From the NCBI RefSeq assembly GCF_032062105.1, contig NW_026938483.1, positions 248,001-312,000 on the forward strand: a stretch of 64,000 nucleotides of DNA, in the 5' to 3' direction. The stretch is from Saccostrea cucullata. Lineage: Eukaryota. Positions 6,101 to 9,100 of the stretch are shown piece by piece. Within the stretch, counting starts at the first letter, position 1, and the number at the start of each line of letters is the position of its first letter. Both the position numbers and the translations under genes were made by a program. The notes under the pieces are model-generated. The model was not told the DNA's origin. It did no database searches and saw only the letters and a list, made by a program, of their open reading frames with translations.

Positions 6101-9100
6101 TAATCCTCTTCGTGCTGGATAGCACATAAGGCCGTCACCAGAGACTTCCATGCTGGCCTGTCCTGTGTCCATTTCTGTATCTGTCCCCATGTCCAGCGGT
6201 TCTTTCCCATCTCTTTCTCTACAGATCTTCTCCATGTTTCTTTTGGTCTTCCTCTCTTTCTCTTGCCAGGTGGTGTCCATTTCAAAGCAACCCTTGGGAT
6301 GGAAGTTGGGTGCATTCTACATACATGCCCTATCCACAGCCATTTTCTTCTCTTTATAACTTGAGATAGAGGGGTGGTGTTGGTCTTTTTGTATAGCTCC
6401 TCATTTGAGATGGTATTTGGCCAGAAGATGCGAAGTATTCTGCGAAGGCAGCGTGTCTGGAAGGTATCTAGCTTGTTTGAGATGGTTTTAGTAACTTTCC
6501 ATGCTTCAGCACCATATAGGAGGACCCCAAGCACGTTGCTCTTGAAGATCCTTATTTTGGTGTTTGTGCTGATCTTTGCTGACCTCCAGATGTTTCTTAG
6601 TGCAACATACGCTCCTGTGGCTTTTGAAATTCGAGCTAGTACATCTACCTCTGAGTTCCCATCTGTGGTGATCTTGCTTCCTAGATAGCCAAATTCTGAG
6701 ACTTCTTCTATTTCTTCGTTATTTAAGGTGATGGGCTCCTCTGATTTAGTATTGACCTTCATGATCTTGGTCTTGGTGTTGTTGATATTAAGGCCAATCT
6801 TCCTTGCTGTTTCTGCTAGTTGTTTTGTTTTTTCTTGCATGTCACGATGGCGGTGTGATAGCAGTGCTATGTCGTCTGCAAAATCCAGGTCTTCTAACAT
6901 CTCTGTCATGGCCCAAGTAATTCCCGTCCGCTTATTCTTGATGGTTTCTTGCATAATCCAGTCAATGCAGAATGTAAAGAGAAGAGGGGAGAGCAGACAT
7001 CCTTGTTTTACTCCAGTCTGTAATTCGAACTCCTCTGATAAGCTTGATCCACAGATAACTCTGGCATTTAGGTCTGTATACAACATCTTAATGCTGGAGA
7101 TAATTTTATCTGGGATCCCATAATGACTGAGAATTTTTTCTAAGGCTAGGCGATTAACACTGTCAAAAGCTTTTGTAAAGTCGATGAAGTTGATGTAAAG
7201 CGGAGAGTTCCATTCATTGCTCTGCTCTAGTATTTGTCTTAGAGTGAATATCTGGTCAGCACATGATCTCCCCTTTCTAAATCCTGCCTGTTCTTTCCGC
7301 AGTAGAGGGTCTGCTATGTCTGTGATTCTGTTCAATATCACTCTGCTTAGCACTTTCATCGATACTGAGAGCAGCATTATCCCTCTATAGTTATTGCAGT
7401 TGGAAAGGTCTCCTTTTTTTGGAAGTTTTACAATAAGGCCTGTTCTCCAGAAGGTTGGTGTCTCTTCTGATTCCCAGATGTTCTGTAGAATATTTGTCAA
7501 GATGGTAGGTGTCCAGTACTCTTCGGCCTTGAGGAGCTCTGCATTTATCTGGTCAATGCCAGCAGCCTTTCCATTTTTTAATCTCTTTATTGCCTTTTTT
7601 ACCTCTTCTATACTGGGTGGATCTGTATTAATGTCCAGTATGTTAATGGCTGGTGTTATCAGGACCTCATTTCCTGTATCATTTATATTGAACACTTCCT
7701 CAAAATGTTCTTTCCATCGTTTCTGTATATCTTCTTCTTTGGATAAGACATTCCCTCTTTTATCTTTTACTGGTAAATCTGCTGTCTGAAGTTCCATGTT
7801 GTCTTATGGATATCTTTGTGCATAAATATAGTTCCACCAATTATCAAGTTGTTTTCTTGGCAGAAAGTGCACAGTCTCTCTCCATTGCTGTTACATTCTC
7901 CTAAGCCTTGCTTACCCATGATGCTTTCTCTTCCTTGATTGCTTTTCCCAACTTTTGCATTTAAGTCTCCCAAGATAAGTAGGACATCGTGAGATGGTGT
8001 ATTGTCTACTATTTCTTGTAAGCTGTCGTAAAAGGAGACTTTTTCGTCGTCTTCTGCATCATCTGTTGGTGCATAGCATACCACTACTGTAAGTTTGGCA
8101 AAGGCTGAGTTGAATCTTGCTGTTATGATTCGTTCATTCACTGGCTTCCATTCTAACAGACTTCTATAAACTTCTTTTGTTGTGATTATTGCTACTCCTC
8201 TGCTATGATGTTCATCAGTTCTTCCAGAGTAGAGTATTTGATGTCCTGACACTAGTTGTTTTGATCCCTTGCCTGTCCATCTAGTTTCACTTACTCCAAG
8301 AAGCTCGATCTTGTAATGCTCCATTTCTCTCACCACTTGTGCTAGTTTTCCTGTTTGGTAGAGGGTCCGCACGTTCCAGCAGCCCACTCTACGTGTTATT
8401 TTTGGTCGAAGGACATCTCCTATCAGGGTGGGGGATTCACCCGTCATACTATCAGTATCCTGAGTGGTTTCAATCCTTCTTCCATCATTTTGTTCTCTGG
8501 TTAAGGTTTCTGTAGCTGCATTGTTTGACATGTTAGGGTTGCTGGCCCTAAGCATAACCCCCTGGACTCGGAGGGCCAGTGGTTTTTCTTTCAGGGTTGT
8601 CCTTCCCTTAGATGATTGCGTTCCCTTGCTTTCGTGCTCATCTACACGGATTTTCTGTCTGGATTATCTTCCATAGCCTTTGACTTTCCCAAGCCTTCTC
8701 ACAAGGCAGTGATGTTATTTGACCCATAGCTGGGGACTAGGATTGCAGGCATCAGGGCATATCCACACGCCGGTGGGCCATGCATGCCGTGCATTTAGGG
8801 GCCTAGTCTCCTCCAAGACCCTGTGGTTCTGCTTGGGGCCGCAAGGTACCCAATTTCCATCTGCTACCTCGAGGAGGATCCCATATCTGGGCCACATAGG
8901 TCTAACTGCGGAGAGGCTATACCTGGCAGAGAAGACTTACATATTTTGCTAACTCTTTTGCAGCGAACTGCTAGCCAGGGGTGGAGCTGAAAGCGAGAGT
9001 GACAAGCACAGACACAGACAGACACACACACTGTACGCATCACACAGCCATTAAGCAGACACTGCCTAATAAAATTATATTATTATTGGCTATTTATCCA

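Follow-up and report, generated by a model that had tools for sequence, protein, structure and literature searches.

The first 245 nt of an RTE retrotransposon copy in the window (the whole 64,000-nt stretch of Saccostrea cucullata DNA analyzed here) are predicted to form an HDV-like ribozyme that likely cuts just before G9060, and the head carrying it has likely moved as a 340–410-nt module onto unrelated RTE bodies. We put the probability of this reading at roughly 0.72. A wider generalization, held at only slightly better than even odds, is that RTEs carry plug-in HDV-like or twister heads exchanged between distant lineages at a 5'-UTR crossover motif, a recent and successful one being HDV-like and catalytically active, with its hairpin placed at the P2/P3 junction.

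The RTE copy and its place in the window

The RTE LINE copy spans 9060–6091 on the minus strand and is internally deleted and broken, about 610 nt being missing relative to the L366 copy, to which it is 98–99.6% identical. Target-site duplications (TSDs) of 13 nt lie at 9061–9073 (5'; 14 nt if G9060 is counted) and 6078–6090 (3'), and the copy ends in a (TAAG)n tail (6091–6102) overlapped by the stop codon. A short tandem-repeat tail with a 10–16-nt TSD is as found in RTE-clade LINEs, and so is the single APE plus reverse-transcriptase (RT) ORF, though it is disrupted in this copy: the APE endonuclease part (7767–8663, minus strand; first plausible ATG at 8531) stops near 7790 with the ~610-nt internal deletion and a frameshift, and the RT part occupies 6100–7803 on the same strand. 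Pfam assigned the window ORF to RVT_1 (E 1e-36), with a weak Exo_endo_phos match under the cut-off; two further copies with the same head, L369 and L372, have intact ORFs of 1018 aa. The probable assignment to RTE is based on this architecture, an RTE 5'-UTR motif and general protein features, the trees below being composed of elements of this genome only.

Exon-like plus-strand ORFs with periodic W/H-Y repeats flank the RTE on both sides (window 155–15600), which suggests that the copy lies antisense within an intron. Pfam returned no name for the host gene of these ORFs; its repeat pattern resembles, we presume, that of SFI1. Because of the ~610-nt deletion and the antisense position in the apparent intron, the copy likely spares the host pre-mRNA. 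Tandem arrays are also present in the window, one of short period at about 300–1250 and one of roughly three ~62-nt units at 5780–5990, near the 3' flank of the RTE.

Predicted layout of the ribozyme

Head positions are numbered so that position n equals window coordinate 9061 − n on the minus strand, to which all feature coordinates in this section refer. Modeled in this way, 9060–8816 almost certainly corresponds to an HDV-like double-pseudoknot fold, and all of the HDV-like parts named in a first-pass annotation of the window could be located in the sequence. P1 joins 9054–9060 (head 1–7), with predicted cleavage just 5' of G9060, the first base of the element, to 8859–8865 (head 196–202). 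The GTCTGCT/AGCAGAT pairing reported for these strands forms in full (7/7 pairs, G1·U, −8.4 kcal/mol), giving the 6–7 bp with G1·Y at the cleavage site expected of P1. P2 joins 8892–8903 (head 158–169) to 8816–8826 (head 235–245) by 11 bp, among them one U·G, and leaves a single A bulged; it crosses P1 and exceeds the expected minimum of 5 bp. J1/2 (8904–9053, head 8–157) measures 150 nt, in agreement with the annotated ~150 nt, and is closed by P1.2, eight pairs between 9040–9048 and 8905–8912, of which the latter strand lies 1 nt short of the 11-bp P2. The (GT/GTCT) microsatellite described within J1/2 turned out to be merely a G/U-rich loop of about 25 nt (around 9030–9007), which sister heads C and D are without.

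Between P2 and P3 stands a 4-bp hairpin (8880–8891, head 170–181), the CCCA-GATA-TGGG element of the annotation, which occurs in head type A only. P3 with its loop occupies 8866–8878 (P3, head 183–185 with 193–195) and consists of a U·U followed by two Watson–Crick C-G pairs, so that the third P3 pair is imperfect, as had been remarked; among parsed A copies the first pair is U·U in 17/18 and unpaired in 18/18. L3 (8869–8875, head 186–192) has 7 nt, and its CC at 8874–8873 is the partner of the P1.1 GG (8857–8858, head 203–204). The P4 hairpin (8833–8853, head 208–228) is followed by J4/2 (8827–8832, head 229–234) with the predicted catalytic C230, plus-strand G8831; a catalytic role for C8831 would follow by analogy with HDV C75.

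Judged by the descriptor in PMC6326823, the window head has an L3 of the UCCNCGN type with P1.1 (CC:GG), and its J4/2 C-A-G-A matches CRRA, i.e. the catalytic C followed by N-R-A (PMC6326823). A 3-bp P3 stacked directly on P2 is absent: P3 has 2 bp plus the U·U, and 13 inserted nt separate it from P2. Standard descriptors had been expected to miss the head, and they do: the strict descriptor (adjacent P2, 3-bp P3) fails on it, and Rfam gave no ribozyme match on the window or on the A, B and D heads. Matches exceed chance: the core pattern had 42 in the genome versus 3 for the reversed control, and a looser core pattern had 33 versus 10 in the control.

J4/2 had been described as one nucleotide longer than in HDV. 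The extra base is there, and the strand is read as the canonical 5 nt followed by one base at the end of P2 that is unpaired or mismatched, as in sister head D; HDV itself has a flexible register at the P2/J4/2 boundary (PMC2175327). Two other registers were considered and set aside: an 8-bp P1 in place of the P3 mismatch is conserved in just 9/18 A and 5/18 B copies, and a shifted register, in which the nucleotide preceding CC pairs with the one that follows J4/2, is found in 18/18 A copies and only 4/18 B copies, and is not general.

Sister heads and covariation

Searches with the endonuclease and with core patterns, from which the best 40–150 candidates per search were taken for RTE heads and bodies, recovered three further head types, B, C and D, on related RTEs. 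Comparison of P1 was confined to copies whose core and 5' heptamer could be recognized (A 18/38, B 18/24, C 5/6, D 5/16); the catalytic C is present in every parsed A, B, C and D copy, as the parser demanded. Consensus P1 strands pair 7/7 within each head type and between A and B, versus 4–5/7 between A/B and C/D. Loss of P1/P2 pairing among family members had been named as grounds for abandoning the ribozyme; the pairing is kept across the sister heads with compensatory changes, and P1, P2, P4 and P1.2 show covariation when the four head types are compared.

From 8 A and 4 B rows, RNAalifold unaided found P2, P1.1, P4 and the J1/2-closing P1.2. When the full structure was imposed on these 12 rows, 94.9% of cells were paired, versus 32–47% in slid controls. 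Seven pairs are doubly changed between A and B (three in P1.2, three of the 10 counted in P2 and one in P4), a count that taken alone was equalled in 73/500 shuffles; these compensatory changes go back to a small number of events separating two families. In heads C and D a canonical 3-bp P3 adjoins P2, and one C copy is matched by the drz-agam-1 model over its full length, at 24.6 bits (E 0.53), under the gathering score of 37.

A phage control (IMG/VR) gave 135 core matches, at least 30 with both P1 and P2 and mostly canonical. Three phage loci that required a long insert are also short of the third pair in P3, and are probably chance matches. Many canonical small HDV-like folds, with P3, L3 and J4/2 letters as in sister heads C and D, were seen on the phage contigs L204–L335.

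Most TSD-verified copies begin at the predicted cleavage site

The 5'-end analysis comprised 41 rows, the window copy and 40 full-length candidates picked for homology reaching the 5' end. A 10–16-nt TSD beside a tail was found in 19 of the 41, short matches without a tail in 12, and none in 10. Sixteen of the 19 copies with a tail-adjacent TSD start at G1, the annotation having asked whether full-length copies all begin GTCTGCT, and the other three are short by 1–2 nt; microhomology of 1–2 nt occurs in 6 of the 16, and no element sequence was found 5' of G1 in any of the 19. Of the 39 non-self matches to the head, 35 have their first base no more than 4 nt from G1 and the other 4 further in; none reaches upstream. 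The reported coincidence of predicted cleavage site and TSD boundary therefore holds in these 16 copies, the window copy being ambiguous by one base (13 or 14 nt). Such starts are consistent with cleavage at G1, but initiation at that base from an internal promoter would produce identical ends. The base before G1 is T in 11/16 TSD-verified copies, which suggests a target-site bias at the 5' junction; this T was rejected as ribozyme sequence because it belongs to the TSD.

One head on five RTE bodies

The shared module of 340–412 nt (8649–9060, minus strand) was found, among the candidates listed, on five RTE bodies (L366/window, L369, L374, L382 and L383 types), and several A-headed copies have an endonuclease only ~50% identical to that of the window. 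By BLAST the A heads are 87–94% identical over the first 340–412 nt, past which neither the window's type nor the L383 type gave a match; bodies 2–4 are just 66–71% identical in the coding region, and bodies 3 and 4 share extra short 5'-UTR pieces (76–89% identical). Over aligned columns the A heads are 91–95% identical and their RTs 30–74%. B and D heads, by comparison, are 66–76% identical at 44–50% RT identity to bodies 1–4.

In RT trees of elements of this genome (a quick tree and FastTree), the window's body is sister to the L407/L411 family, which bears another head, and three A-headed bodies cluster away from it. The most distant A-headed body is L383, which has a C-terminal zinc-finger-like motif. 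A single clade of the five A-headed bodies was rejected (AU p = 2e-71; 12 rows, one per family, from 23). At least two copies per body share an identical junction and carry their own head variants; TSDs are verified and distinct for bodies 1–4, body 5 (L383, L402) being without a verified TSD, and the tails are (TAAG)n for body 1, (TAGG)n for bodies 2 and 3, and (GAT)n for body 4.

Head/body junctions fall at a conserved RTE 5'-UTR motif (8714–8736, minus strand) or up to about 70 nt beyond it. This motif matches the 23-nt RTE-like piece of Ceph-SINEs, which is part of an RTE-wide 5'-UTR domain and persists in IdioSINE2 after replacement (PMC5786205). Taken together, these sequence comparisons indicate that heads have very probably been swapped between RTE bodies. 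No precedent was found in the searched literature for recent transfer of an entire ribozyme head between five RTE bodies.

Proposed mechanism, and alternatives

In the mechanism that we propose, the ribozyme would cut read-through host transcripts just 5' of G9060. The cut at G1 would yield an RNA of unit length, and copying to the end of that RNA would fix where new copies begin. P1 and P2 may be pinched together by P1.2 and the extended P2, as in drz-Agam-2, with the 4-bp hairpin looped out at the P2/P3 junction and C8831 (C230) acting as general acid with Mg2+; a catalytic C plus Mg2+ is the mechanism described for the HDV ribozyme (PMC13635239, PMC8495972). Heads are likely exchanged by RT template switching, or by recombination of DNA copies, at the conserved 5'-UTR motif, and a chimera with a working head would then amplify as a new family. 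For RTE ribozyme heads a part in translation has also been proposed (PMC6765202).

Folding predictions and RNA data, in part evidence against high activity, were also considered. The unconstrained MFE fold gave no signal (z 0.70), and P1 and P3 were absent from it. An alternative in which L3 and P1' pair with P4 beats the native-compatible nested fold by 3.2 kcal/mol, and by ~10 kcal/mol the bare hand-drawn fold to which P1 (−8.4) has not yet been added; sister heads have the same kind of misfold gap (3.2–5.5 kcal/mol). The head is present in RNA contigs of runs X1, X4, X2, X3, X15 and X16, which are uninformative on starts, and the raw RNA runs X23 and X24 (oligo-dT, about 46% scanned) contained no head reads and no start signal. 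Since the A head has become established on five bodies, we consider it probable that it is active with its hairpin, which in the model could rival P3 for stacking on P2.

The hairpin is present at 37/38 A loci and in none of sister heads B, C and D, and is on that account taken to be derived and lineage-specific. Eleven nucleotides of it are gone from L351 and from one contig of run X15. A short direct repeat flanks the hairpin, and L351 is placed, with weak support, inside A, so that both absences are likely later losses; L351 as a hairpin-less ancestor of A was set aside on the same weakly supported nesting. Neither the A+B covariation nor the variants at A loci held a compensatory change in the stem, variants mostly breaking pairs, and two apparent examples of covariation, L336 and L353, are decayed copies.

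Recruitment of L1 5' UTRs is usually set in the context of promoter capture, and the A head might by the same logic be a relic, inactivated by its hairpin and P3 mismatch, on which an internal promoter sets the 5' end or whose fold serves translation or protein binding. The two non-canonical features at the P2/P3 junction and the predicted competing fold are in keeping with such a relic. There are also parallels in Pr77, the internal promoter of L1Tc, an element with a dual promoter/ribozyme 5' end (PMC3383444), and in L1 5'-UTR recruitment (PMC4758252). We nevertheless regard a relic as rather unlikely. Across five A subclades the core varies at 4/76 sites versus 16/90 downstream (p = 0.001), L3, P1.1, J4/2 and the catalytic C do not vary at all, and 2 of 3 changes in core helices preserve pairing. 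Copies start at G1 to the base, head B carries a P3 mismatch and still amplifies, and a P3 mismatch is described in one R2 ribozyme, that of the jewel wasp (PMC3774820). If the ribozyme is active, the hairpin could itself be functional, offsetting the weak P3, tuning the rate or binding an RTE protein, and could have aided the spread of the head. None of its 12 sites is changed in the five subclade consensuses, it is kept at nearly every A locus, and A is the head on most bodies; yet 0/12 has a p of about 0.1 at the background rate, and the broken pairs, the want of compensatory change, the absence from B, C and D and the 11-nt losses all speak against a function, which we consider unlikely. 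The hairpin is, on these comparisons, likely tolerated rather than required, and may be a passenger.

It could also be argued that no swap took place, and that extreme purifying selection held the heads at 91–95% while the ORFs diverged, or that the junctions are assembly artefacts. Ribozyme cores are indeed constrained, and the assembly has many frameshift-like indels, but the identity of A heads spans loops and spacers outside the core and stops abruptly at 340–412 nt. Bodies bearing B, C, D, twister and other heads are interleaved in the RT tree, and the same junction is met again on separate contigs, the TSDs of bodies 1–4 being distinct, all of which makes this account very improbable and favors exchange of the head as a module.

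Comparison with known ribozymes and LINE 5' ends

RTE 5' ends are known to bear the HDV-like ribozymes drz-Agam-1 and drz-Agam-2 (Ruminski et al. 2011, via PMC6765202, PMC5786205 and PMC3774820; PMC4908430). The window head resembles these in its double pseudoknot, G1·Y, the motifs of L3 and J4/2, a large J1/2 that P1.2 closes, P2 of 11–12 bp and predicted cleavage site at the element 5' end. It differs from them in its 4-bp P2/P3 hairpin, 2-bp P3 and lack of an Rfam match. The layout of P1, short linker, P1.2 and long P2 that speeds up drz-Agam-2-1, the "pinch" (PMC4908430), is also that of the window head. We expect the head to work like the known RTE HDV-like ribozymes, and file it as a variant because it has no 3-bp P3 directly on P2.

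The first-pass annotation had listed several features as atypical, of which the P2/P3 hairpin is indeed unusual, whereas the long J1/2, the P3 mismatch and the J4/2 length have precedents. Long J1/2 domains, a 12-bp P2 and P3 mismatches are on record (PMC4908430, PMC3774820), and R2 ribozymes have J1/2 from 23 to over 700 nt and P2 mismatches (PMC3774820). The window head is R2-like in its long J1/2 and its P2 and P3 mismatches; R2 ribozymes, however, are vertically inherited with a site-specific element, whereas here the head has likely moved among bodies that are not site-specific. An insert between P2 and P3 of an HDV-like ribozyme had no precedent in the searched literature, which excluded Ruminski 2011, Webb 2009, the Webb and Luptak review and supplements.

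Shared or recruited LINE 5' ends include the mammalian L1 5' UTR, Pr77 of ingi/L1Tc and the LP heads of Nimb/RTE (PMC4758252). As in those systems, one 5' module is found on otherwise dissimilar LINEs, and as in the Ceph/RTE domain and IdioSINE2, replacement occurred beside the same ~23-nt RTE 5'-UTR motif (PMC5786205). In contrast to them, the module here is a whole ribozyme head, recently exchanged (91–95%) between five autonomous-type RTE bodies of one genome, and a second HDV-like head and twister heads fill the same slot. In the twister T-variants of the RTE Perere-3 the cleavage site adjoins the TSD (PMC8501958). A predicted ribozyme cut at an RTE TSD is likewise found here, and a related family has twister-P1 heads, although the window head belongs to another ribozyme class and its P1 is wholly element-encoded.

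If the proposed exchange and activity are real, ribozyme heads would sweep across LINE families as L1 promoters do, many RTE ribozymes would escape current descriptors, and the structural tolerance of HDV-like ribozymes would extend to the P2/P3 junction near the active site, which is relevant to descriptors and to aptazyme design. The elements would also provide a test, set up by nature, of the ways in which LINEs that lack a promoter acquire and trade modules for 5' processing: one genome combines a single head with five bodies, and related bodies with several heads, so that the contributions of head and body to retrotransposition could be told apart.

Other predicted ribozyme heads in this genome

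A second large HDV-like head is common to L411 and L414/L415, at 82–84% identity across ~330 nt, and the bodies behind it fall in different RT clades; it lies at L411:545–790, L414:496–740 and L415:557–800, with an L3 of 7, 9 or 10 nt by eye. A twister-P1 fold begins an RTE family with an RT 52–54% identical to that of the window, at 7/10 loci scanned (L074, L075, L076, L077, L080, L082 and L087, e.g. L074:1276–1330 on the plus strand). These matches have E-values of 3e-7 to 7e-4, under the gathering score, and in 3/4 cases tested the TSD lies 0–3 nt from the predicted cut. Full twister-headed copies are L406 and L408–L410, with tails of the (TGAG)n type. At L412:597–680 a compact HDV-like fold, drawn by eye, begins exactly at the TSD of another RTE family.

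Many B-type heads (L128, L130, L133, L136, L144, L145 and L150) have in common a short flank upstream, and their match to the RTE stops after ~300 nt. Several of them run on into another common repeat, the ribozyme head being seemingly embedded in a different repeated element, which we take to be Helentron/HINE-like. Lastly, L371 (G000:C15574) is A-headed and only ~805 nt long; it has a 14-nt TSD and ends in (TAGG)n, and neither EN nor RT gave a match in it. From its sequence it is classed as a putative bipartite non-autonomous RTE.
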